The notes beneath the pieces were generated by a model, which saw only the letters and a program-made list of their open reading frames with translations, made no database searches and had not been told where the DNA came from. From assembly GCA_000004985.1 (NCBI GenBank), contig GG738975.1: DNA of 14,517 bases. One strand, given 5' to 3'. Shown here one piece after another: positions 1 through 14,517 of the stretch. The DNA comes from Naegleria gruberi (taxonomy: Eukaryota). The position numbers and the translations under genes are program-made. Position 1 is the stretch's first letter. Each line of letters opens with the position of its first letter.

Positions 1-829
1 ATCTTATATCTAGACCAGTAACATTACATTTCATGAAATATGCTGAGCCATCCCCCAATTCGAATTTTCCAAAATTAGTAGAATCCAAATCTACAACCAC
101 TCGATTTCCAATCTTTGATTTGATTCTAACCGCCTTGTGTTCATTCAATTCCGTCATTCCCCTAACATTTCTAAAGACAATATTTTGATGAACATTCATT
201 CCCTCTTCCTTATTAAATTCATCATCTGGGAAAAGATCAATTTTTGTTGGGTTTCCATTGACGATATCCTTAATTGAACAACCTTCTTTGAAGCCAGGGT
301 TCAGATCTTTGATTTTGTGTTCGCCCATATCATAGAATATTAAACTTGATAAGCCCTTCATGTCGGATGCCACGAATTTAATATTATTATCGTGACAGAT
401 TTGAGCCAAATCAATCAGTGATGAAAGAGAATGTTCAGTACAAATAACAAAATCAAACTCTTTCAAAAACTGCACATCACCTGCCAAGCTGTCAACTTGA
501 CCATCTTTCACATTAATTTTTGCAAATGGATTCAATCCATTCAACACAATCATTGCTCTCTCCGCTCTATTTCTTCCAATCACTTCTTCCTCCTTCGAAT
601 CGGCAACAATCGAATAAAAATCTGCCAAATCCTCATACGAAACCATCTTTGAATCCATCAGTGTTAATTGTTCAATTCCATTTTGGAGTAAATTCTTTGC
701 CACTTCCAATCCAAGTCCACCCATTCCACACACCAACACTCTACACTTATTGAAGGTTGTGATTTTATCCTCTGGCCACCACGTATGCACCAACGTTTCA
801 TAGAATTGCTGTTTGGTTAGTGTCGACAT
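1..829 (-). CDS. sae1: SUMO-activating enzyme subunit 1 (Aos1/SAE1)-like E1 (ThiF/MoeB Rossmann fold); start codon present, C-terminus lies beyond window start
   Basis: Start ATG is the complement of 827-829. The upstream context on the coding strand is a T10 run, i.e. an A-rich Kozak on the minus strand. A continuous frame runs from 829 down to position 1, verified by hand at both ends and in the middle. Translation begins MSTLTKQQFYETLVHTWWPEDKITTFNKCRVLVCGMGGLGLEVAKNLLQNGI...GRNRAERA...AQICHDNNIKFVASDMKGLSSLIFYDMGEHKI. The GxGxxG nucleotide loop, GRNRAE motif and QICHxNxIKF...GEH block match Aos1/SAE1 better than ULA1/APPBP1 from memory. The ORF is missing from the supplied track only because it has no in-window stop. 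Confidence 0.75.
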   Translation of the reverse strand, partial: MSTLTKQQFYETLVHTWWPEDKITTFNKCRVLVCGMGGLGLEVAKNLLQNGIEQLTLMDSKMVSYEDLADFYSIVADSKEEEVIGRNRAERAMIVLNGLNPFAKINVKDGQVDSLAGDVQFLKEFDFVICTEHSLSSLIDLAQICHDNNIKFVASDMKGLSSLIFYDMGEHKIKDLNPGFKEGCSIKDIVNGNPTKIDLFPDDEFNKEEGMNVHQNIVFRNVRGMTELNEHKAVRIKSKIGNRVVVDLDSTNFGKFELGDGSAYFMKCNVTGLDIR

Positions 830-1124
830 TTTTTTTTTCTTTTGAAAAGTCGCACACTTTTGGCGGGAAGATATTTTACATTGTTTTACAATCAAATTGC
901 TTTATTCTCTGTTATTTATTAGTATTGAATATCAAAGGTGAAATAAAGAGAATAGAAGGGAGAACAAAGGTTGGCGCCTTCTCACTACAGCTTTGTCAAA
1001 AAAGCTTATTTGGAATGGACAAATTCACAATGATTAATGACATTTTGATCAAACAATTCTCAGTTTTTTGAAAAAAACTTTACAAAGGTTCAATTATTCG
1101 AGAATTTACAAAACTCAAAAAAAA

Positions 1125-2013
1125 ATGTCCTACTCATCTGATGAAGAAGATTATCAAGAAGAAGAAGAAGAACCTTTTTCCTCCTCATCACCATCATCAC
1201 CATCATCATCCTCTTCTGGAGACGAAGAAGAAGAATCAACAGATGATCGATATGTGAGAGTGGAGGGTAATAATCCAAAGAGAAAAAACCTAAATGTCAC
1301 CAGCAATAGCAGTAGCAGCAATATGAATTTTATTCAAAGCAATTTTAATGATCATCATTATATTTATCCTGATTCTGATCTAAATTATGGTTATTTTCTT
1401 AATACTACTGCTAATAGAAGAAGTAGTAGTAGTGGTGGTGATAAGAAGACTGGAGCAGCTGCATTTACATTTACTGCATCGGGACAACCGTTTGGAATTT
1501 CTGGTGGTGGTCTTGGTGGTGGTGATCAAACTCTAATTTCCTCATCAAATTCAAATAGTTTTTCTTCTTCAAATTCAACTCTGTGTGGTGGTTTCAAGTT
1601 TGATGATACTTCTAAAGTCCTGTGTAGTCAACAAAAACCAATATTTGGTTCTTTTAATACTTCTCAGCCTTTTGGTACTAATAGTGGTGATGATCATCAA
1701 GCTACTAACAATTCAAATAGTTCAAATACTCATAATGCATCATCCACTTCATCATTGGCAGCATCGGAAGAGAAATTATTTGTCTTTGGAAGTGTTCCAT
1801 CATCCTCATCCTCTTCATTAAGCCACTCACCAACAAAGACAATGCATAGAAGAGGCATAAATGTTGCATCCAAGAATAGGAATGAAAATATTGATACCAT
1901 ATTCAATTCATTGCCAAAACCTCCTACTTTTGGTTATCAACAAGCAGTTGATCAAAAAGATAGTACCACTGGTGATTCTTTAACAGAGATGAGTCAGTCC
2001 TTGTATAGTATTT
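1125..2013 (+). CDS. Acidic/Ser-rich low-complexity protein with FG dipeptide repeats (FG-nucleoporin-like N-terminal region); 3' part lost in gap 1
   Basis: ATG at 1125-1127 is preceded by a9 (caaaaaaaaaATG). The track's earlier 'M' at 1068 is TTG. Open frame continues to the N run at 2014. Protein: MSYSSDEEDYQEEEEEPFSSSSPSSPSSSSSGDEEEE...PKRKN...QPFGISGGGLGGG...KPIFGSFNTSQPFGTNSG...KLFVFGS...PPTFGYQQ. It has five xFG motifs separated by S/N/G/T-rich spacers, and a basic PKRK patch. Confidence 0.7.
1158..1235 (+). repeat. Coding trinucleotide microsatellites: (GAA)5, a TCA/TCC-rich tract, (GAA)4
   Basis: gaagaagaagaagaa at 1158-1172, ctcctcatcaccatcatcaccatcatcatcctcttct at about 1181-1217, and gaagaagaagaa at 1224-1235. 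These encode the EEEEE / SSPSSPSSSSS / EEEE runs. Confidence 0.6.
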
Positions 2014-3039
2014 NNNNNNNNNNNNNNNNNNNNNNNNNNNNNNNNNNNNNNNNNNNNNNNNNNNNNNNNNNNNNNNNNNNNNNNNNNNNNNNNNNNNNNN
2101 NNNNNNNNNNNNNNNNNNNNNNNNNNNNNNNNNNNNNNNNNNNNNNNNNNNNNNNNNNNNNNNNNNNNNNNNNNNNNNNNNNNNNNNNNNNNNNNNNNNN
2201 NNNNNNNNNNNNNNNNNNNNNNNNNNNNNNNNNNNNNNNNNNNNNNNNNNNNNNNNNNNNNNNNNNNNNNNNNNNNNNNNNNNNNNNNNNNNNNNNNNNN
2301 NNNNNNNNNNNNNNNNNNNNNNNNNNNNNNNNNNNNNNNNNNNNNNNNNNNNNNNNNNNNNNNNNNNNNNNNNNNNNNNNNNNNNNNNNNNNNNNNNNNN
2401 NNNNNNNNNNNNNNNNNNNNNNNNNNNNNNNNNNNNNNNNNNNNNNNNNNNNNNNNNNNNNNNNNNNNNNNNNNNNNNNNNNNNNNNNNNNNNNNNNNNN
2501 NNNNNNNNNNNNNNNNNNNNNNNNNNNNNNNNNNNNNNNNNNNNNNNNNNNNNNNNNNNNNNNNNNNNNNNNNNNNNNNNNNNNNNNNNNNNNNNNNNNN
2601 NNNNNNNNNNNNNNNNNNNNNNNNNNNNNNNNNNNNNNNNNNNNNNNNNNNNNNNNNNNNNNNNNNNNNNNNNNNNNNNNNNNNNNNNNNNNNNNNNNNN
2701 NNNNNNNNNNNNNNNNNNNNNNNNNNNNNNNNNNNNNNNNNNNNNNNNNNNNNNNNNNNNNNNNNNNNNNNNNNNNNNNNNNNNNNNNNNNNNNNNNNNN
2801 NNNNNNNNNNNNNNNNNNNNNNNNNNNNNNNNNNNNNNNNNNNNNNNNNNNNNNNNNNNNNNNNNNNNNNNNNNNNNNNNNNNNNNNNNNNNNNNNNNNN
2901 NNNNNNNNNNNNNNNNNNNNNNNNNNNNNNNNNNNNNNNNNNNNNNNNNNNNNNNNNNNNNNNNNNNNNNNNNNNNNNNNNNNNNNNNNNNNNNNNNNNN
3001 NNNNNNNNNNNNNNNNNNNNNNNNNNNNNNNNNNNNNNN
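2014..3039. other. Assembly gap / masked run (1026 N)
   Basis: Uninterrupted n characters. Flanked by coding sequence on both sides. Confidence 0.99.
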
Positions 3040-3040
3040 C

Positions 3041-3631
3041 ATTAACATTATCTATAACTTTAAAGAGGACAGTGATGCTGTGGTGAAAATTCCTGATTCT
3101 CTGGGAGGAGTCAAAACCATATATTGTCACAAGACTGTGCTCTCCAGTGCTTCTGAAATGTTGGAAGTAAATTTTGGACCCAATTGGAGCAATGAAGAGG
3201 ATGAAGATGGAAGAGCCATCATCAATGTTGAACATCTCATTGAAGTTGCCTCAGATCCAAGTGTAATGGAATTTATTATCGAGTATGCCTATGGAATTTT
3301 TGCACCAATCAAGGTTTCTTCCAAGCAAGTAATTCCACTCATTAAGGCTGCACATTTCTATAGAATTCAGGGCCTTCTCGATGAGTGTCTCTACTTGTGT
3401 GTGAATAGGGACAAGCTCTCCTTTTTCGAAGTGGCCGAATCTCTAGAGGATCATTTCGAAGACGAAACCATGGAAGCTTTTGAGGATGTTATGGTAGAAA
3501 TTGGAACTGCCAATTACCCCTTCATTATTGGAGCAAGTGATGAAGAATTAATGAAATTGCCAAAGAGAATGCTTATTAAGATGTTCAGAAAGATTTACAA
3601 AACATACATTCCAAATATCAAAACCTTGTAA
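3041..3631 (+). CDS. BTB/POZ-domain protein, C-terminal portion (N-terminal part in gap 1); may be the 3' end of the FG-repeat gene or a separate gene
   Basis: The frame of the track ORF 3080..3631 (whose 'M' is GTG) stays open upstream to the gap edge at 3040. It reads ...INIIYNFKEDSDAVVKIPDSLGGVKTIYCHKTVLSSASEMLEVNFGPNWSNEEDEDGRAIINVEHLIEVASDPSVMEFIIEYAYGIFAPIKVSSKQVIPLIKAAHFYRIQGLLDECLYLCVN. This is the classic BTB pattern: DVxL...G..F.AHKxVL..S.YF...F....I.L.....P..F..LL.F.Y.G......NV..LL.AA..LQ. Stop TAA at 3629-3631. Confidence 0.75.
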   Translation: MNIIYNFKEDSDAVVKIPDSLGGVKTIYCHKTVLSSASEMLEVNFGPNWSNEEDEDGRAIINVEHLIEVASDPSVMEFIIEYAYGIFAPIKVSSKQVIPLIKAAHFYRIQGLLDECLYLCVNRDKLSFFEVAESLEDHFEDETMEAFEDVMVEIGTANYPFIIGASDEELMKLPKRMLIKMFRKIYKTYIPNIKTL

Positions 3632-3673: not shown

Positions 3674-4409
3674 TTAGTTTTTGAAAATTCTCATTACAGT
3701 AACCAAATAGTCACGATATTTCTCTCCAAATAAAGAGATTACTTCTTCCTTGCTTTCAAAGGCAGATCTATTATTCTTCCAAACACGGAAACAGAATCTG
3801 TTTCTTGCATTCCATTCAGCTCCATCCTTATCCAAGGTCAATCTTACATGTTTGTAATAACCAGTAATTAACATCTTGACCTTTTCTTTCACAAGTGGAA
3901 TATTTTTAGAGGATTGGAATGAGTTGACTAAATTGTGGAATGGAACAGATCCCTTCAAGTTTCCATGCAAGATTCCAGCAGCTTCAATTTCATCCTCAGA
4001 TTGAATAAAGAGATTAGCAGTTTCATAGGATGCAGAATTGTTAATCAAATGATTAATGGAAATACTAATCTTTTTGCTAATTATTAGTTGAGTGATGGAT
4101 TTCATAAATTTAATTGATTCTTCTTCATTGAAAGGAGAGTAATATTCTCCCTTTTCAATGGCAACTTTCTTCTTGTTTGGAGTTTGAAAGTTGACAGTTT
4201 GAATCAATAAACAAATGAGTCCAGATTTGCTATTTACCATTGAGTGAATATCAGAAATATCCTCCTTTTCATTCAAATACTCTGATGCTACCTTAATGAA
4301 TGGTAAAATATTGGAACGGAAGGATTCGTCCAATTTCGAAACAAGACCAGTTGCAAGTTGACCTAATCTTTGATATTTCCTGAAGAAATTCCACATTAGT
4401 GTTAAATTC
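3674..4409 (-). CDS. C-terminal fragment of a gene emerging from gap 2; possibly the C-terminus of the vWA-domain gene below; weak, degenerate resemblance to an alpha-kinase catalytic core
   Basis: Frame is open from the gap edge (4409) to stop TAA, the complement of 3674-3676. The ATG at 4396 that the track uses as a start is internal, because NLTL precedes it in frame. Only loose matches to alpha-kinase motifs are present (VAIEKGEYYSPFNEEE vs IEGEYIKYNSNSG; SASYETANLFIQSEDEIEAAG vs SHFTxExSxxxLxVxDxQGVG). These are not convincing on their own. Confidence 0.55.
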
Positions 4410-5895
4410 NNNNNNNNNNNNNNNNNNNNNNNNNNNNNNNNNNNNNNNNNNNNNNNNNNNNNNNNNNNNNNNNNNNNNNNNNNNNNNNNNNNNNNNNNNN
4501 NNNNNNNNNNNNNNNNNNNNNNNNNNNNNNNNNNNNNNNNNNNNNNNNNNNNNNNNNNNNNNNNNNNNNNNNNNNNNNNNNNNNNNNNNNNNNNNNNNNN
4601 NNNNNNNNNNNNNNNNNNNNNNNNNNNNNNNNNNNNNNNNNNNNNNNNNNNNNNNNNNNNNNNNNNNNNNNNNNNNNNNNNNNNNNNNNNNNNNNNNNNN
4701 NNNNNNNNNNNNNNNNNNNNNNNNNNNNNNNNNNNNNNNNNNNNNNNNNNNNNNNNNNNNNNNNNNNNNNNNNNNNNNNNNNNNNNNNNNNNNNNNNNNN
4801 NNNNNNNNNNNNNNNNNNNNNNNNNNNNNNNNNNNNNNNNNNNNNNNNNNNNNNNNNNNNNNNNNNNNNNNNNNNNNNNNNNNNNNNNNNNNNNNNNNNN
4901 NNNNNNNNNNNNNNNNNNNNNNNNNNNNNNNNNNNNNNNNNNNNNNNNNNNNNNNNNNNNNNNNNNNNNNNNNNNNNNNNNNNNNNNNNNNNNNNNNNNN
5001 NNNNNNNNNNNNNNNNNNNNNNNNNNNNNNNNNNNNNNNNNNNNNNNNNNNNNNNNNNNNNNNNNNNNNNNNNNNNNNNNNNNNNNNNNNNNNNNNNNNN
5101 NNNNNNNNNNNNNNNNNNNNNNNNNNNNNNNNNNNNNNNNNNNNNNNNNNNNNNNNNNNNNNNNNNNNNNNNNNNNNNNNNNNNNNNNNNNNNNNNNNNN
5201 NNNNNNNNNNNNNNNNNNNNNNNNNNNNNNNNNNNNNNNNNNNNNNNNNNNNNNNNNNNNNNNNNNNNNNNNNNNNNNNNNNNNNNNNNNNNNNNNNNNN
5301 NNNNNNNNNNNNNNNNNNNNNNNNNNNNNNNNNNNNNNNNNNNNNNNNNNNNNNNNNNNNNNNNNNNNNNNNNNNNNNNNNNNNNNNNNNNNNNNNNNNN
5401 NNNNNNNNNNNNNNNNNNNNNNNNNNNNNNNNNNNNNNNNNNNNNNNNNNNNNNNNNNNNNNNNNNNNNNNNNNNNNNNNNNNNNNNNNNNNNNNNNNNN
5501 NNNNNNNNNNNNNNNNNNNNNNNNNNNNNNNNNNNNNNNNNNNNNNNNNNNNNNNNNNNNNNNNNNNNNNNNNNNNNNNNNNNNNNNNNNNNNNNNNNNN
5601 NNNNNNNNNNNNNNNNNNNNNNNNNNNNNNNNNNNNNNNNNNNNNNNNNNNNNNNNNNNNNNNNNNNNNNNNNNNNNNNNNNNNNNNNNNNNNNNNNNNN
5701 NNNNNNNNNNNNNNNNNNNNNNNNNNNNNNNNNNNNNNNNNNNNNNNNNNNNNNNNNNNNNNNNNNNNNNNNNNNNNNNNNNNNNNNNNNNNNNNNNNNN
5801 NNNNNNNNNNNNNNNNNNNNNNNNNNNNNNNNNNNNNNNNNNNNNNNNNNNNNNNNNNNNNNNNNNNNNNNNNNNNNNNNNNNNNNNNNNNNNNN
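4410..5895. other. Assembly gap / masked run (1486 N)
   Basis: Uninterrupted n characters. Interrupts the minus-strand vWA gene. Confidence 0.99.
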
Positions 5896-6582
5896 CATCA
5901 TCCTTATTGACAAGATTCCAACACTTGAATTAGAGGTCAATAATCCAATGAGATTTTCCATCGATTGATTAATTTCATTGGCATCTTTCACATATTGGAA
6001 AGTTCCTTGAACTGAACCCAATTGAGTAATTTGGGTCAATAATGCAACATCGTGACTAGAGGTGAAACCAATGGTGTGAAATTCGAAACTTTGAGTTTTA
6101 GTTTCGAGAACTTTCTTCATCTGTTCAATGGCTTTTTCTCTCTTATGACTGGATCCATCTTGTCCATCGGTGAAAAACAAGATTGCAACCTCAGATTGAC
6201 GATTAAACATGTCTAAATTTGAAATGGCCTCAAATACACAGGTAAAATCAGTTCCTCCACCAGCTTGAATCTGTTCAAGAGTTGATTGTCTAGTTTCGGC
6301 TGGTTTCTTCCTCAAATCATACAACTCTGCAGAGGTATCATAGGTAATCAATACAACATCTGGTGTATCGACAACTTGTTCAAATAAATTCGAAATTGCA
6401 ATCTTTGCTTGATCAATTCCTTGACCACGCATCGATCCAGAAACATCCAACGCAATTACAATTTGCTTTTCCTTCCTCTGAATATTCGAAATGAGATCAA
6501 ATTGAAGACAAGTTATGCTATCATCAATTTCATATTGACGAGTTTCAATAGTGTTATTATCTGATTGTTTGGAGGAGGACAT
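5896..6582 (-). CDS. von Willebrand factor A (vWA) domain protein with complete MIDAS motif, N-terminal portion; continues into gap 2
   Basis: ATG is the complement of 6580-6582, with an A-rich run upstream on the coding strand. Protein: MSSSKQSDNNTIETRQYEIDDSITCLQFDLISNIQRKEKQIVIALDVSGSMRGQGIDQAKIAISNLFEQVVDTPDVVLITYDTSAELYDL...QAGGGTDFTCVFEAISN...VAILFFTDGQDGSS. The DxSxS...GGT...TDG series is the MIDAS metal-binding signature of vWA domains. The DVSGSM codons are at 6430-6450. Confidence 0.8.
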
Positions 6583-6925
6583 TGTTTTTTTTTTTAATTT
6601 GTTTTTTTTGTTGATTCTTGATTGACCAAGTTCATCCCCTGATGTGGTTTAAATATGAATTTGAAGGTTATGGTTGTGGGGAGGATGAACTTTGTGAATG
6701 GATATATGCAATTATGAAAAATACGAAAGGAAGTGTGGTTATATGAAATTACATTTTAATGTCTAGTGTGTTGGTTGACTTTGCAACATGATTATATTTT
6801 CATTCTTATAAATAATTTATTAGGAAAACATTGTCAAAATAACATATTGATTAATTAATTCACACAAGGGGTTTAAATTCATTTCCAATAACATCAAATT
6901 AAAAAGTGATTGATCATTACAAAAG

Positions 6926-7293
6926 TTACTGCTGAAGGATTGAAATACCTCTCTAAATTGAAACAATTGACTGACCTGGATGTTTCTTCATGCAATATTC
7001 GACATGAAGGAGCCAAAGTTCTTAGTGGAATGGCTCAATTAAAAACGCTAGTCTTGCAAGACTGTAATATTGGAATGGAAGGTGCTCTAGAAATAAGCAA
7101 GCTTACCCAATTGACTTCACTCAATATTCATAGTAATAATATTGGTGATAAGGGAGCCGAATCAATCACTACTAAACTAGAAAATCTTACAATTCTCGAT
7201 ATTAGTTTTAGAGAATTTAATGAAGAAATTAAGAAATCCATTTATTCAATGAAGAATTTAACAATAATCAATAATAATAGTATCATTGATTAA
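6926..7293 (+). CDS. Leucine-rich repeat (ribonuclease-inhibitor / RNI-type LRR) coding exon; no in-frame ATG, 5' boundary uncertain (possible splice acceptor AG at 6924-6925)
   Basis: The track ORF 6910..7293 starts at TTG directly after an in-frame TGA (6907-6909). Translation shows about 3.5 RNI-type repeats of 24-28 residues: LTDLDVSSCNIRHEGAKVLSGMAQ / LKTLVLQDCNIGMEGALEISKLTQ / LTSLNIHSNNIGDKGAESITTKLEN / LTILDISF. Stop TAA at 7291-7293. Confidence 0.45.
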
Positions 7294-7335: not shown

Positions 7336-7725
7336 TTATTCATTGAAATATATTGAGGTAATCATTCCAAGAGACAATGCCATCAACACAACAATATCAA
7401 CATTACAAACTCTTACAATCTGTCTATTTACCATTGACTGTTTTTTTGATAATCTACTCAACCAAATAAAGGATGCCACACTAACAATACCAGATCCAAA
7501 TGCCAATCCATACAATTCTGGTCTAAATGCTCCATAACAATGAAAAGTTCCAAGTAATCCAAATAGTACAGCTCTATGTCTCATTAAAATTTCAAGATTC
7601 TCCTCATTGATTGGAATTCCATATAATTTCTCTAATTGCCTTGATCCTAGAAGGCCAGATAGTGGCAACAAGTGGACAATACCCGAAAGAAGAAGAGAGG
7701 CAGCTGGAATGTAATGATGAAACAT
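7336..7725 (-). CDS. Small (129 aa) predicted membrane protein with about 4 hydrophobic helices; function unknown
   Basis: ATG is the complement of 7723-7725, with an A-rich Kozak (ttctttaaaaATG on the minus strand). Stop TAA is the complement of 7336-7338. Hydrophobic segments: AASLLLSGIVHLLPLSGLLG, AVLFGLLGTFHCYGAF, GLAFGSGIVSVASFIWL, IVVLMALSLGMITSIY. Confidence 0.55.
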   Translation of the reverse strand: MFHHYIPAASLLLSGIVHLLPLSGLLGSRQLEKLYGIPINEENLEILMRHRAVLFGLLGTFHCYGAFRPELYGLAFGSGIVSVASFIWLSRLSKKQSMVNRQIVRVCNVDIVVLMALSLGMITSIYFNE

Positions 7726-7894
7726 TTTTTAAAGAATTTCTTCTTCTGCAGAAATTATAATCAAATGATAATATTTAATAAAAATTAATTTTCAATCAAT
7801 TAATTTCATATCTTCGGAATGTTGTTGTAACATGTTAGTGTTTAATTATGTTGTAAATAATATTTAAAATATTTAAAATAATAATAATAAAAAA

Positions 7895-8314
7895 ATGATT
7901 AAAGGTGAAATAGTGGCATCAGGTGGTAGGTGATCAAAATCATCGATATTATTATATTATATTTATCGGATGGTTTCGAATTATAGACCAATTTGTGAGT
8001 GATGTTTGTGGAGAGATTATTTCATACATTGACGATACGTGGTTTATTTTGAATAATTGCACATTGATTTCGAAACAATGGTTGAATGCGATCAAGAATT
8101 ATGCAAAACTTTATGCAGAATTTAGAAAAGATTTGACCGAGGAAAGAGTTAAATTATTATTCGAAAGTTCATTCTTGGACAGAATTATTGGAATGATAAT
8201 ATATTTGCATGATCCGTGTGATGAATTTTGGAGAAATCTTTGGAAATTTACAAATTTACAATTTTTCAATTTTAGTGGATCTGCTGGAAAGCAAGAGAGT
8301 GAAGAAAAAAAACT
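7895..8314 (+). CDS. F-box-like N-terminal region of a larger protein; proposed 2-exon start (exon 1 7895-7925, intron 7926-7986 GTAGGT...TATAG, exon 2 from 7987), continuing into gap 3
   Basis: The track ORF 7923.. begins at GTG, directly after an in-frame TAG (7911-7913), so it has no ATG. The ATG at 7895-7897 (aaaaaaaATG) reads MIKGEIVASG and then hits a stop if unspliced. Removing a 61-nt AT-rich interval beginning GTAGGT (7926) and ending TATAG (7986) joins G + AC into GAC and continues in the long open frame. The joined protein reads MIKGEIVASGDQFVSDVCGEIISYIDDTWFILNNCTLISKQWLNAIKNY..., and the I..I.D...I...C.LISKQW pattern resembles an F-box. Confidence 0.5.
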
Positions 8315-11300
8315 NNNNNNNNNNNNNNNNNNNNNNNNNNNNNNNNNNNNNNNNNNNNNNNNNNNNNNNNNNNNNNNNNNNNNNNNNNNNNNNNNNNNNN
8401 NNNNNNNNNNNNNNNNNNNNNNNNNNNNNNNNNNNNNNNNNNNNNNNNNNNNNNNNNNNNNNNNNNNNNNNNNNNNNNNNNNNNNNNNNNNNNNNNNNNN
8501 NNNNNNNNNNNNNNNNNNNNNNNNNNNNNNNNNNNNNNNNNNNNNNNNNNNNNNNNNNNNNNNNNNNNNNNNNNNNNNNNNNNNNNNNNNNNNNNNNNNN
8601 NNNNNNNNNNNNNNNNNNNNNNNNNNNNNNNNNNNNNNNNNNNNNNNNNNNNNNNNNNNNNNNNNNNNNNNNNNNNNNNNNNNNNNNNNNNNNNNNNNNN
8701 NNNNNNNNNNNNNNNNNNNNNNNNNNNNNNNNNNNNNNNNNNNNNNNNNNNNNNNNNNNNNNNNNNNNNNNNNNNNNNNNNNNNNNNNNNNNNNNNNNNN
8801 NNNNNNNNNNNNNNNNNNNNNNNNNNNNNNNNNNNNNNNNNNNNNNNNNNNNNNNNNNNNNNNNNNNNNNNNNNNNNNNNNNNNNNNNNNNNNNNNNNNN
8901 NNNNNNNNNNNNNNNNNNNNNNNNNNNNNNNNNNNNNNNNNNNNNNNNNNNNNNNNNNNNNNNNNNNNNNNNNNNNNNNNNNNNNNNNNNNNNNNNNNNN
9001 NNNNNNNNNNNNNNNNNNNNNNNNNNNNNNNNNNNNNNNNNNNNNNNNNNNNNNNNNNNNNNNNNNNNNNNNNNNNNNNNNNNNNNNNNNNNNNNNNNNN
9101 NNNNNNNNNNNNNNNNNNNNNNNNNNNNNNNNNNNNNNNNNNNNNNNNNNNNNNNNNNNNNNNNNNNNNNNNNNNNNNNNNNNNNNNNNNNNNNNNNNNN
9201 NNNNNNNNNNNNNNNNNNNNNNNNNNNNNNNNNNNNNNNNNNNNNNNNNNNNNNNNNNNNNNNNNNNNNNNNNNNNNNNNNNNNNNNNNNNNNNNNNNNN
9301 NNNNNNNNNNNNNNNNNNNNNNNNNNNNNNNNNNNNNNNNNNNNNNNNNNNNNNNNNNNNNNNNNNNNNNNNNNNNNNNNNNNNNNNNNNNNNNNNNNNN
9401 NNNNNNNNNNNNNNNNNNNNNNNNNNNNNNNNNNNNNNNNNNNNNNNNNNNNNNNNNNNNNNNNNNNNNNNNNNNNNNNNNNNNNNNNNNNNNNNNNNNN
9501 NNNNNNNNNNNNNNNNNNNNNNNNNNNNNNNNNNNNNNNNNNNNNNNNNNNNNNNNNNNNNNNNNNNNNNNNNNNNNNNNNNNNNNNNNNNNNNNNNNNN
9601 NNNNNNNNNNNNNNNNNNNNNNNNNNNNNNNNNNNNNNNNNNNNNNNNNNNNNNNNNNNNNNNNNNNNNNNNNNNNNNNNNNNNNNNNNNNNNNNNNNNN
9701 NNNNNNNNNNNNNNNNNNNNNNNNNNNNNNNNNNNNNNNNNNNNNNNNNNNNNNNNNNNNNNNNNNNNNNNNNNNNNNNNNNNNNNNNNNNNNNNNNNNN
9801 NNNNNNNNNNNNNNNNNNNNNNNNNNNNNNNNNNNNNNNNNNNNNNNNNNNNNNNNNNNNNNNNNNNNNNNNNNNNNNNNNNNNNNNNNNNNNNNNNNNN
9901 NNNNNNNNNNNNNNNNNNNNNNNNNNNNNNNNNNNNNNNNNNNNNNNNNNNNNNNNNNNNNNNNNNNNNNNNNNNNNNNNNNNNNNNNNNNNNNNNNNNN
10001 NNNNNNNNNNNNNNNNNNNNNNNNNNNNNNNNNNNNNNNNNNNNNNNNNNNNNNNNNNNNNNNNNNNNNNNNNNNNNNNNNNNNNNNNNNNNNNNNNNNN
10101 NNNNNNNNNNNNNNNNNNNNNNNNNNNNNNNNNNNNNNNNNNNNNNNNNNNNNNNNNNNNNNNNNNNNNNNNNNNNNNNNNNNNNNNNNNNNNNNNNNNN
10201 NNNNNNNNNNNNNNNNNNNNNNNNNNNNNNNNNNNNNNNNNNNNNNNNNNNNNNNNNNNNNNNNNNNNNNNNNNNNNNNNNNNNNNNNNNNNNNNNNNNN
10301 NNNNNNNNNNNNNNNNNNNNNNNNNNNNNNNNNNNNNNNNNNNNNNNNNNNNNNNNNNNNNNNNNNNNNNNNNNNNNNNNNNNNNNNNNNNNNNNNNNNN
10401 NNNNNNNNNNNNNNNNNNNNNNNNNNNNNNNNNNNNNNNNNNNNNNNNNNNNNNNNNNNNNNNNNNNNNNNNNNNNNNNNNNNNNNNNNNNNNNNNNNNN
10501 NNNNNNNNNNNNNNNNNNNNNNNNNNNNNNNNNNNNNNNNNNNNNNNNNNNNNNNNNNNNNNNNNNNNNNNNNNNNNNNNNNNNNNNNNNNNNNNNNNNN
10601 NNNNNNNNNNNNNNNNNNNNNNNNNNNNNNNNNNNNNNNNNNNNNNNNNNNNNNNNNNNNNNNNNNNNNNNNNNNNNNNNNNNNNNNNNNNNNNNNNNNN
10701 NNNNNNNNNNNNNNNNNNNNNNNNNNNNNNNNNNNNNNNNNNNNNNNNNNNNNNNNNNNNNNNNNNNNNNNNNNNNNNNNNNNNNNNNNNNNNNNNNNNN
10801 NNNNNNNNNNNNNNNNNNNNNNNNNNNNNNNNNNNNNNNNNNNNNNNNNNNNNNNNNNNNNNNNNNNNNNNNNNNNNNNNNNNNNNNNNNNNNNNNNNNN
10901 NNNNNNNNNNNNNNNNNNNNNNNNNNNNNNNNNNNNNNNNNNNNNNNNNNNNNNNNNNNNNNNNNNNNNNNNNNNNNNNNNNNNNNNNNNNNNNNNNNNN
11001 NNNNNNNNNNNNNNNNNNNNNNNNNNNNNNNNNNNNNNNNNNNNNNNNNNNNNNNNNNNNNNNNNNNNNNNNNNNNNNNNNNNNNNNNNNNNNNNNNNNN
11101 NNNNNNNNNNNNNNNNNNNNNNNNNNNNNNNNNNNNNNNNNNNNNNNNNNNNNNNNNNNNNNNNNNNNNNNNNNNNNNNNNNNNNNNNNNNNNNNNNNNN
11201 NNNNNNNNNNNNNNNNNNNNNNNNNNNNNNNNNNNNNNNNNNNNNNNNNNNNNNNNNNNNNNNNNNNNNNNNNNNNNNNNNNNNNNNNNNNNNNNNNNNN

Positions 11301-12853
11301 NNNNNNNNNNNNNNNNNNNNNNNNNNNNNNNNNNNNNNNNNNNNNNNNNNNNNNNNNNNNNNNNNNNNNNNNNNNNNNNNNNNNNNNNNNNNNNNNNNNN
11401 NNNNNNNNNNNNNNNNNNNNNNNNNNNNNNNNNNNNNNNNNNNNNNNNNNNNNNNNNNNNNNNNNNNNNNNNNNNNNNNNNNNNNNNNNNNNNNNNNNNN
11501 NNNNNNNNNNNNNNNNNNNNNNNNNNNNNNNNNNNNNNNNNNNNNNNNNNNNNNNNNNNNNNNNNNNNNNNNNNNNNNNNNNNNNNNNNNNNNNNNNNNN
11601 NNNNNNNNNNNNNNNNNNNNNNNNNNNNNNNNNNNNNNNNNNNNNNNNNNNNNNNNNNNNNNNNNNNNNNNNNNNNNNNNNNNNNNNNNNNNNNNNNNNN
11701 NNNNNNNNNNNNNNNNNNNNNNNNNNNNNNNNNNNNNNNNNNNNNNNNNNNNNNNNNNNNNNNNNNNNNNNNNNNNNNNNNNNNNNNNNNNNNNNNNNNN
11801 NNNNNNNNNNNNNNNNNNNNNNNNNNNNNNNNNNNNNNNNNNNNNNNNNNNNNNNNNNNNNNNNNNNNNNNNNNNNNNNNNNNNNNNNNNNNNNNNNNNN
11901 NNNNNNNNNNNNNNNNNNNNNNNNNNNNNNNNNNNNNNNNNNNNNNNNNNNNNNNNNNNNNNNNNNNNNNNNNNNNNNNNNNNNNNNNNNNNNNNNNNNN
12001 NNNNNNNNNNNNNNNNNNNNNNNNNNNNNNNNNNNNNNNNNNNNNNNNNNNNNNNNNNNNNNNNNNNNNNNNNNNNNNNNNNNNNNNNNNNNNNNNNNNN
12101 NNNNNNNNNNNNNNNNNNNNNNNNNNNNNNNNNNNNNNNNNNNNNNNNNNNNNNNNNNNNNNNNNNNNNNNNNNNNNNNNNNNNNNNNNNNNNNNNNNNN
12201 NNNNNNNNNNNNNNNNNNNNNNNNNNNNNNNNNNNNNNNNNNNNNNNNNNNNNNNNNNNNNNNNNNNNNNNNNNNNNNNNNNNNNNNNNNNNNNNNNNNN
12301 NNNNNNNNNNNNNNNNNNNNNNNNNNNNNNNNNNNNNNNNNNNNNNNNNNNNNNNNNNNNNNNNNNNNNNNNNNNNNNNNNNNNNNNNNNNNNNNNNNNN
12401 NNNNNNNNNNNNNNNNNNNNNNNNNNNNNNNNNNNNNNNNNNNNNNNNNNNNNNNNNNNNNNNNNNNNNNNNNNNNNNNNNNNNNNNNNNNNNNNNNNNN
12501 NNNNNNNNNNNNNNNNNNNNNNNNNNNNNNNNNNNNNNNNNNNNNNNNNNNNNNNNNNNNNNNNNNNNNNNNNNNNNNNNNNNNNNNNNNNNNNNNNNNN
12601 NNNNNNNNNNNNNNNNNNNNNNNNNNNNNNNNNNNNNNNNNNNNNNNNNNNNNNNNNNNNNNNNNNNNNNNNNNNNNNNNNNNNNNNNNNNNNNNNNNNN
12701 NNNNNNNNNNNNNNNNNNNNNNNNNNNNNNNNNNNNNNNNNNNNNNNNNNNNNNNNNNNNNNNNNNNNNNNNNNNNNNNNNNNNNNNNNNNNNNNNNNNN
12801 NNNNNNNNNNNNNNNNNNNNNNNNNNNNNNNNNNNNNNNNNNNNNNNNNNNNN
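8315..12853. other. Assembly gap / masked run (4539 N)
   Basis: Uninterrupted n characters. Swallows the 3' part of the F-box-like gene and most of the Bub1/Mad3-like gene. Confidence 0.99.
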
Positions 12854-13752
12854 CTTCCAGGTAGCATGATTGGCTGGAGTGGCTTAATTTCCTGTAAAGG
12901 TTGTTTACCAAATATTCTCCTCAAATCAGTGGCCTTTCTACCACCTTTCAGAGGAATGATATTCTCCTTAGCAGCTTCAAATTCCTCAAAATCAACAATG
13001 ACCCTTTCCTCTGTTGATGTTGGTTGTTGTGTTGAATCTTGAATTCCACTTTGATTGTTATTATTATGAGTATTAATGGCAATTGGAGATTGGAAACTAT
13101 TAGAAGGTGAAACACTCAAAGATGGAAAACCCTGATTATTGGAGGAGGTAATAATTGAGGAAGGAGAGCAACTAGTCGATGGTGATGAATACACCGAAAA
13201 GGTCATACTATTCACAGTAGGTGAAGAACTCAAACCAAAGGATTGTTGTGGTGAGGATGACAATGAACCAATTTGATTATTATTATTAGTACTTGGAATA
13301 TCTAGCAAGTTATTCCCATTAGTAGGCATCATGAGCATTTGATTTCCACTACTAAAACCTAATTCATTTGTATTAATTGTATTATTATTAATTGTATTAA
13401 AAGATGATGAAGGAAAAACAAGATTAGGCTTTGATAAACTTCTACTCGGACGATTCATCAAGAGACCAGGGGCAGAACTACAACTCGTCAATGATGATCC
13501 AACATTGCTAATAGTATTAGTTGGTGATGGATTAACACTGGAGGAGGAAGGCTTTGATAATCTCAAGCCATTGTTGGATGATGGAAACGAGACGGAATTA
13601 GTGGGGAGTGTGATGGTGGGAGTTCCTAGGCGTTGAAAGGAGGATGGTCTGATCAGTGATGCTGGAGGCGGTTTATTGTTTGATGAAGCTTGCTGTTGAT
13701 TGATTGAAGAAGGGAGAGTAGGAGGGAATCGCAAGCGTTGACTTTCAAACAT
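12854..13752 (-). CDS. Bub1/Mad3(BubR1)-family spindle-assembly-checkpoint protein, N-terminal portion: about 260 aa S/N/T/P-rich low-complexity extension followed by the conserved KEN-box block; continues into gap 3
   Basis: ATG is the complement of 13750-13752 (ccagaaaaaaATG on the minus strand). Open frame runs to the gap edge. The last visible residues are ...EERVIVDFEEFEAAKENIIPLKGGRKATDLRRIFGKQPLQEIKPLQPIMLPG. The DFEEFEAAKENIIPLKGGRKATDL block parallels the N-terminal KEN-box region of yeast Mad3 (...[24 protein letters not shown]) and BubR1 (SKENVQPLRQGR). KEN codons are the complement of 12961-12969. Confidence 0.72.
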
Positions 13753-13877
13753 TTTTTTCTGGTGTAACGGTAAAAAATTTAAAAATTGTGTAACGTTCTT
13801 GTGAAAGCAAGATGTTGTCTCAAAAGGGCTATTATGAAATTTAATAAGAATTTTGTGAAATCAAACAACGGCCCGCG

Positions 13878-13888
13878 TAGCAGAGTGG
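13878..13888 (+). promoter_or_regulatory. Pol III A box (TAGCAGAGTGG) internal to tRNA-Leu
   Basis: Exact match to the eukaryotic A-box consensus TRGCNNAGTGG at tRNA positions 8-18. Confidence 0.7.
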
Positions 13889-13931
13889 TCAAATGCGTAA
13901 GACTTAAGATCTTATCCCGAATGGGTTCGTG

Positions 13932-13942
13932 GGTTCGAACCC
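13932..13942 (+). promoter_or_regulatory. Pol III B box (GGTTCGAACCC) internal to tRNA-Leu
   Basis: Matches the B-box consensus GGTTCGANTCC in the T arm with one substitution. Confidence 0.7.
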
Positions 13943-13960
13943 CACCGCTGGCAAATTAAT

Positions 13961-13992: not shown

Positions 13993-14517
13993 TTATTTCT
14001 TTTCAATTAATCTAGTAAACAAGTCACTAATCAATTCTTCATCCTTAGGTACCTCTTTCATTAAAATTTCATGATTTGGATGTTCTTCCCAACTTGGATA
14101 TGGAGCTTCTTCATAAATTTCACCAAACTTTTCACTCAACTCAGTCTTCAACTCTTCCCAAACTCTTCCTAAATGCATATAAGGTCCAACATAGTGTTTC
14201 TTCAAATAAACTCCTTTTGGAATGGTTTTAAGTTGAATAGGAAGAGAATACGAACAAGTTTCGTTCACTTTCTTTATACTTTCTTCAAATTCTTCTCTCT
14301 TTGAAGGAAGATTGAATTTTTCAACAGTTTCTGCTGTGAGAAAAACAGCATTCTCCAAATCTACATCTTCCACAGAATCGAAACGATTGTAAAACGTAGC
14401 TGGATACATTCTTGATTGTTCACCAACTAATTTCAATGCCATTTCATGAGTTTGTTTAATCCAATTGGTAAATTCAGGAGTAATGACACTAACTGATGTC
14501 TGGAGACACTCAGATAG
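13993..14517 (-). CDS. GyrI-like (AraC-effector-binding-type) small-molecule-binding domain protein; C-terminal part, ORF remains open to the right window edge so the true start is outside the window
   Basis: Stop TAA is the complement of 13993-13995. The ATG at 14442 chosen by the track is internal, because the frame is open for 25 more codons to 14517 (LSECLQTSVSVITPEFTNWIKQTHE-M...). The motif ...TIPKGVYLKKHYVGPYMHLGRVWEEL... fits the GyrI-like signature (IPAGxYAVxxHxGPYxxLxxxYxxL). Confidence 0.5.
   Translation of the reverse strand, partial: LSECLQTSVSVITPEFTNWIKQTHEMALKLVGEQSRMYPATFYNRFDSVEDVDLENAVFLTAETVEKFNLPSKREEFEESIKKVNETCSYSLPIQLKTIPKGVYLKKHYVGPYMHLGRVWEELKTELSEKFGEIYEEAPYPSWEEHPNHEILMKEVPKDEELISDLFTRLIEKK

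Follow-up and report, generated by a model that had tools for sequence, protein, structure and literature searches.

The open frame on the minus strand of the window (the whole 14,517-nt stretch of Naegleria gruberi DNA analysed here, ~35% G+C overall) poses the question of why a KEN box of the Mad3/BubR1/Bub1 type should lie so far from the beginning of its reading frame, and whether the low-complexity sequence in front of it is protein. The frame is a single one of 299 codons that runs from position 13752 to 12854 and there enters a run of Ns without a stop; each of the three N runs in the window (2014-3039, 4410-5895 and 8315-12853) cuts long open frames. Measured from stop to stop the frame is 335 codons long, and when the 1,664-nt segment was shuffled 300 times, the longest frame to arise was 82 codons on average and at most 150. 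Since this openness is far beyond chance, the frame reported in a preliminary description of this DNA is real and its coordinates hold.

Identity of the gene

A profile search with the fragment and the Willaertia and N. lovaniensis proteins found the 757-residue "predicted protein [Naegleria gruberi]" (P0005), to whose residues 1-299 the fragment corresponds (100% identity over 100% of its length, verified by an exact string check). The rest of the gene had been placed in the third gap, and this agrees with a fragment that holds 299 of 757 residues and a frame that enters the N run at 8315-12853. A dictyostelid origin is ruled out, since the fragment matches an N. gruberi protein exactly and has its relatives in Naegleria and Willaertia (Heterolobosea). 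A search of the full database protein for Mad3_BUB1_I and Pkinase, as the preliminary description had proposed, gave a strong match to Pfam PF08311 (Mad3_BUB1_I) at residues 416-542 (E = 3.1e-36; 124.5 bits, cut-off 31.4), so that a TPR-like domain does follow the KEN box, and no kinase among the Pfam families at E ≤ 0.01. Pattern matching placed a C-terminal cassette of ABBA (FVIYDE, residue 662), KEN2 (EKENNEKPDKW, 708) and ABBA (FSIFVD, 748) motifs; the TPR and C-terminal motifs are read from the database protein alone, the window DNA there being an N run. The D-box pattern RxxLxxxx[NDE] had no match in the 757 residues. Since passages of PMC5204127 describe occasional loss of the D-box among MAD proteins, this motif is not strictly defining for MAD.

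The supplement of that paper contains both NGRU_MAD and a separate NGRU_BUB, and it lists the exact KEN1 (EEFEAAKENIIPLKGGRKATDLRRIF) and KEN2 blocks for NGRU_MAD, so the gene is the MAD paralogue and was already known. NGRU_MAD, the 757-residue NCBI protein and the window fragment represent the same gene. Passages of Tromer et al. 2016 (PMC5204127) list 16 independent MadBub duplications, with Naegleria as #16. The preliminary description had held that Bub1 and Mad3 could not be told apart at this locus, its sequence-only reading being unable to rule out Bub1, and a KEN1 followed by a TPR would also be found in an undivided MadBub gene, which combines KEN1, TPR and kinase (as passages of PMC5204127 describe). 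However, the 757-residue protein runs to a terminus (...FSIFVDEEFK) 182 residues past the TPR helices without a Pkinase match, a separate BUB sequence exists, and four orthologues likewise have no kinase. Among solved structures, human BubR1 (5lcw_S, 6.5e-24) and S. pombe Mad3 (4aez_C, 5.6e-18) are the best relatives of the full protein, and Bub1 chains score behind them (2e-14 to 3.5e-9). We regard a Bub1-type, kinase-bearing gene or an undivided MadBub as vanishingly improbable here, and the earlier indecision between Bub1 and Mad3 falls away.

Judged by its sequence, this region contains codons 1-299, at the 5' end of the kinase-less Mad3/BubR1-like MAD gene of N. gruberi, and MAD arose by a Naegleria-specific MadBub duplication. 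Both the literature and NCBI already contain the gene, its KEN1 and its identity as MAD; a literature search found no experimental work on Naegleria MAD. If the 757-residue protein is encoded without introns, as its four orthologues are, the gene would span about 11479-13752. Its parts, all on the minus strand, are as follows:

13750..13752, minus strand: probable start codon, M1 of the 757-residue model; first ATG of the frame, preceded by AAAAAA, and start of the NCBI model
13012..13752, minus strand: S/N/T/P-rich N-terminal extension, codons 1-247, predicted to be disordered; no similarity to the closest orthologue
13204..13206, minus strand: alternative start ATG, M183, the start of the published NGRU_MAD (MTFSVYSS..., PMC5204127 supplement)
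12854..13011, minus strand: conserved heterolobosean MAD N-terminal region, residues 248-299 and 2 bases of codon 300
12910..12987, minus strand: KEN1 block EEFEAAKENIIPLKGGRKATDLRRIF, residues 256-281, as matched by the KEN1 HMM; KEN codons at 12961-12969
11479..12853, minus strand: predicted remainder of the gene, codons 300-757 and stop, all within the N run
within 11479..12853, minus strand: predicted gap content, namely the KEN1-TPR linker, the Mad3_BUB1_I TPR and ABBA-KEN2-ABBA

The KEN1 block and its depth

Within the translated frame, DFEEFEAAKENIIPLKGGRKATDL occupies residues 254-277 and the KEN tripeptide residues 262-264 (codons 12969-12961), with 261 residues before K262. To score this block we used an HMM built from 103 KEN1 instances (the 106 published in supplementary sequence file II of PMC5204127, minus that of N. 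gruberi and two degenerate ones). It matched residues 256-281 end to end with 31.7 bits (E = 2e-8), the top score among 5,000 shuffles of the fragment being 8.5 bits, and the flanking consensus W/F-E-x-x-KEN-[IV]-x-P-L-x-x-G-R is present in the block. The assignment to the Mad3/BubR1/Bub1 KEN box is borne out by these scores, and on sequence grounds the KEN1 box of N. gruberi MAD is genuine.

A phmmer search with the 58-residue block against 1.84 billion representatives returned three matches, of which two were real proteins: one of 440 residues in Willaertia magna (E = 5e-11, residues 17-62) and one of 625 residues in Naegleria lovaniensis (E = 1e-8, residues 32-68). Both contain Mad3_BUB1_I (E = 2e-38 and 1.5e-34, respectively) and neither contains a kinase. 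The match listed at the top, a protein of 2,118 residues, was discarded as an artefact, being highly repetitive, with 0 matched stretches and nonsense Pfam matches. Other searches with short queries gave less. A phmmer search of the PDB with the 58-residue KEN block alone, a query too short for the purpose, returned only chance matches to SDO1-like proteins (E about 2), and Pfam found nothing relevant in the 299-residue fragment because PF08311 leaves KEN1 uncovered. A word-indexed homologue search with 64 residues gave no candidate; since relatives sharing words of 8-9 residues do exist, this null result reflects a limit of the index and not an absence of homologues.

In the published set, the K of KEN1 stands at residue 7-67 in the 105 other species (median 17), which confirms the earlier statement that homologues carry their KEN box near the N-terminus. 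The N. gruberi KEN1 is the deepest of the 106 species under either start (K at 262 counted from M1, or at 80 from M183), and in the main-text passages of PMC5204127 we found no discussion of this exceptional depth. The stretch before it is long and of low complexity, as had been described, with S, N, T and P together making up 57% of the first 250 residues.

Orthologues and the start of translation

Four heterolobosean orthologues were available for comparison:

Naegleria fowleri (P0004), 643 residues
Naegleria lovaniensis (P0003), 625 residues
Willaertia magna (P0002), 440 residues
ENA metagenome contig (P0006), 473 residues

All four resemble N. gruberi MAD in having KEN1, the Mad3_BUB1_I TPR, ABBA-KEN2-ABBA and a C-terminus of the form FSIFxD[DE]EF, and in being intronless and kinase-less. 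The closest is the metagenome protein (67% overall identity to N. gruberi MAD), which comes from ENA ERZ27315067, contig k141_220370 (L001; about 43-45% G+C around the gene start). Because its MFE start and a CCGTTACA motif are common to it and N. gruberi, the contig is probably from an unsequenced Naegleria-like heterolobosean. Residues 248-299 of N. gruberi MAD are 63-86% identical to the Willaertia, N. lovaniensis, N. fowleri and metagenome proteins. The similarity begins abruptly: BLASTP against the metagenome orthologue showed homology from N. gruberi residue 248 (residue 31 of the orthologue), and no counterpart of N. gruberi residues 1-247 was found in any of the four proteins, whose KEN stands at residues 29-46 as opposed to 262 in N. 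gruberi. Read back from the annotated ATG, the frame of the four orthologues stays open for just 2-7 codons, so no hidden extension exists there. The preliminary description had suggested looking for conservation of the extension among relatives, and in these four heterolobosean orthologues it is not conserved.

What the five genomes do have in common is a short sequence before the gene. All five heterolobosean genomes have a CCGTTA[C/A] motif on the gene strand, 6-35 nt before the MAD start, with TTTTAAA-type elements around it and an A-run before the ATG in each species. Its coordinates in the orthologous loci are 4411-4417 (L001), 4966-4972 (L002), 4966-4972 (L003) and 2915-2921 (L004). In the window the corresponding features are:

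13763..13770, minus strand: ACCGTTACA-type motif with core CCGTTAC at 13764-13770, 11 nt before the ATG
13789-13796, minus strand: AACGTTACA, a related copy of the motif
between the ACCGTTACA-type and AACGTTACA copies, minus strand: TTTTTAAATTTT element, with an A-run after it

CCGTTAM occurs once in the window (0.39 occurrences expected) and once or twice in each orthologous locus of 8-12 kb. In the Willaertia and metagenome orthologues the sole Met before KEN follows 7-10 nt after the motif, which places the motif at or upstream of the 5' end region of the mRNA. We infer that CCGTTA[C/A] is a promoter or 5'UTR element. In N. gruberi the assembly of motif and A-run stands directly before ATG 13752 and not before M183, and by analogy with the orthologues ATG 13752 would lie in the N. 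gruberi mRNA as its first AUG.

MSA elements are characteristic of G2/M-specific genes that R1R2R3-Myb factors bind. In reverse complement the motif reads GTAACGG and includes AACGG, which forms the core of the MSA element of plants, (T/C)C(T/C)AACGG(T/C)(T/C)A (PMC5405339), and CCGTTA[C/A] could be a putative Myb-type mitotic promoter element in Naegleria. On the opposite strand, 118 nt before the MAD start codon, is a tRNA-Leu(TAA) gene (13871-13953, plus strand), which leaves at most about 118 nt for the MAD promoter; the four orthologous loci contained no tRNA gene.

The composition of the N. gruberi frame itself also bears on the start. Codon usage was scored by a log-likelihood for which nine further ORFs of the window, themselves scoring 0.15-0.36, were the training set; in the annotated frame codons 1-182 scored +0.115, codons 183-250 +0.127 and codons 251-299 +0.229. 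The annotated frame was the sole clearly positive one (one antisense frame was near zero), and at 0.12 bits per codon its extension scored below the reference ORFs. Synonymous codon fractions of the extension correlate with those of the nine window ORFs at r = 0.90, a measure that discriminates poorly as synonymous usage largely tracks the A+T bias of the genome. The 5' flank has a G+C content of 0.27-0.28, which jumps to 0.45-0.50 exactly at ATG 13752, and the S/N/T/P composition of the extension is matched by that of the KEN1-TPR linker (residues 290-412).

Two gene models circulate, the 757-residue NCBI protein from M1 and the NGRU_MAD of PMC5204127 from M183. In the shorter model the same gene would be translated from M183 (ATG 13206-13204), codons 1-182 being 5'UTR or untranscribed DNA that is open by chance, and a 79-residue leader would remain before KEN1. 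This is how the sequence appears in the PMC5204127 supplement, where NGRU_MAD begins MTFSVYSS with KEN1 at 74-99, and it would suit both the modest codon signal of codons 1-182 and their lack of conservation in every orthologue. We nevertheless consider a start at M183 unlikely, as 182 codons without a stop in DNA of about 36% GC are very unlikely for a UTR, the first 300 nt have a GC content of 0.40-0.50 compared to 0.27 in the flank, and the conserved CCGTTAC motif and A-run precede ATG 13752 while neither precedes M183. Were the mRNA to begin near the motif, five in-frame AUGs (M1, M99, M139, M141 and M142) would come before M183. Nor would the shorter model make the protein ordinary, with KEN1 at residue 80 still the deepest of the 106 species.

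The extension might instead be a spliced-out intron or other non-coding DNA, the protein having a short N-terminus, e.g., MFE joined near ...EERVIVDFEEF. That only 28-45 residues precede KEN in the orthologues, that the MFE start is common to N. gruberi and its closest orthologue, and that GT and AG dinucleotides which would keep the frame are present all speak for this possibility, but about 700 nt without an in-frame stop would be very improbable in an intron, the 5' splice-site hexamer GT[AG][AT]GT is absent from the ORF, and introns are absent from all four orthologous genes. The coding-like GC and codon usage, and a composition that is the same as that of the protein's own internal linker, likewise argue against splicing, which we hold to be highly improbable. 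The 757-residue model with its start at ATG 13752 is in our judgement the likely one, preferred over both the M183 start and splicing, and the leader is probably translated. Of the two possibilities left by the preliminary description, a protein extension thus stands on the open frame, codon usage, G+C content and upstream motif, and an internal exon preceded by UTR or intron is disfavoured. That comparative promoter evidence favours the longer of the two models matters for work in which Naegleria MAD is expressed or tagged.

The leader, the checkpoint architecture and neighbouring genes

AlphaFold2, run on a nine-sequence alignment, gave residues 1-251 a pLDDT below 50 with no secondary structure; residues 255-262, immediately ahead of KEN, were predicted as a short helix, and the TPR was modelled with confidence over 413-575. 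For the leader this is a weak prediction, a single sequence within a nine-row alignment, that agrees with the composition, and the leader is probably disordered, as had been supposed. Its description as phosphorylatable, with many S/T-P sites, did not survive as a distinctive trait: the 8 sites observed are what composition leads one to expect (9.0 +/- 2.3 in shuffles), and the extension contains no [ST]Px[KR] site, the full CDK consensus. Recent microsatellite expansion is out as the origin of the leader, which has just one small 9/15-nt tandem repeat (13368-13400).

Since ATG 13752 matches the orthologue starts in position, the N. gruberi lineage would have gained about 740 nt of low-complexity coding sequence in the interval from the start codon to the KEN1 helix. 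Low-complexity expansions are common in the other linkers of N. gruberi MAD and in the orthologues. The leader is most likely a species-specific, low-complexity passive tail, tolerated at the free N-terminus and with no specific function indicated. That the leader is instead a functional, lineage-specific regulatory disordered region, e.g., one that tunes the assembly, turnover or localisation of the MCC in an organism whose mitosis is closed, seems to us improbable. The long leader is a curiosity rather than a discovery, and matters little in itself.

We compared N. gruberi MAD with human BubR1 (chains 5lcw_S, 5khu_Q and 6tlj_S, and the TPR in 2wvi and 3si5) and with S. pombe Mad3 4aez_C. Both the KEN block (residues 248-279 against 12-43 of human BubR1 in 5lcw_S) and the TPR (413-570 against 55-207) are co-linear. 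N. gruberi MAD has 261 residues before KEN where human BubR1 has 25, and its low-complexity KEN1-TPR linker of about 130 residues contrasts with about 25 in BubR1; compared with human BubR1 and S. pombe Mad3 it is also without pseudokinase and without D-box. The N. gruberi linker (residues 282-412) would fall at about 12517-12909 of the window, mostly in the N run. It measures about 180-210 residues in N. lovaniensis (residues 70-250) and N. fowleri (about 58-270); Willaertia and the metagenome orthologue have about 50-70. The KEN1 helix-loop-helix lies packed beside the TPR in the solved MCC, whereas the linker of heterolobosean MAD is long and variable.

Passages of PMC5204127 describe the roles of the KEN1 pseudo-substrate, TPR and ABBA-KEN2-ABBA in the family. 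By analogy, in the mitotic checkpoint complex KEN1, following its short helix, would occupy the KEN receptor of Cdc20 as a pseudo-substrate, and the TPR would be a scaffold packing on Cdc20 and Mad2. The ABBA-KEN2-ABBA cassette would hold a second Cdc20 on the APC/C, and anaphase onset would be blocked. We infer by the same analogy that Naegleria MAD may bind Cdc20 and Mad2 in a checkpoint complex and inhibit the APC/C. KEN1 can apparently function or at least persist 260 residues from the N-terminus, a depth that fits positioning by the adjacent helix and TPR and not by closeness to the chain end.

The remaining recognizable features of the window, apart from the tRNA gene, are gene fragments and open reading frames:

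2-901, minus strand: ThiF/E1-like activating enzyme fragment
1041-2012, plus strand: long ORF, no Pfam match
3041-3628, plus strand: BTB/POZ protein fragment
3677-4408, minus strand: long ORF, no Pfam match
5896-6648, minus strand: VWA-domain protein fragment
6910-7290, plus strand: LRR protein fragment
7339-7728, minus strand: long ORF, no Pfam match
7914-8312, plus strand: long ORF, no Pfam match

The upstream neighbour of MAD in the window is a same-strand ORF (13996-14517, minus strand) with no Pfam match, and the downstream side is the N run. Synteny around MAD is kept only partly. In all four orthologous loci the gene after MAD encodes a UAA-family transporter and is read from the other strand; an Exo_endo_phos gene, likewise on the other strand, stands upstream of MAD in three of them (it was not seen in Willaertia).
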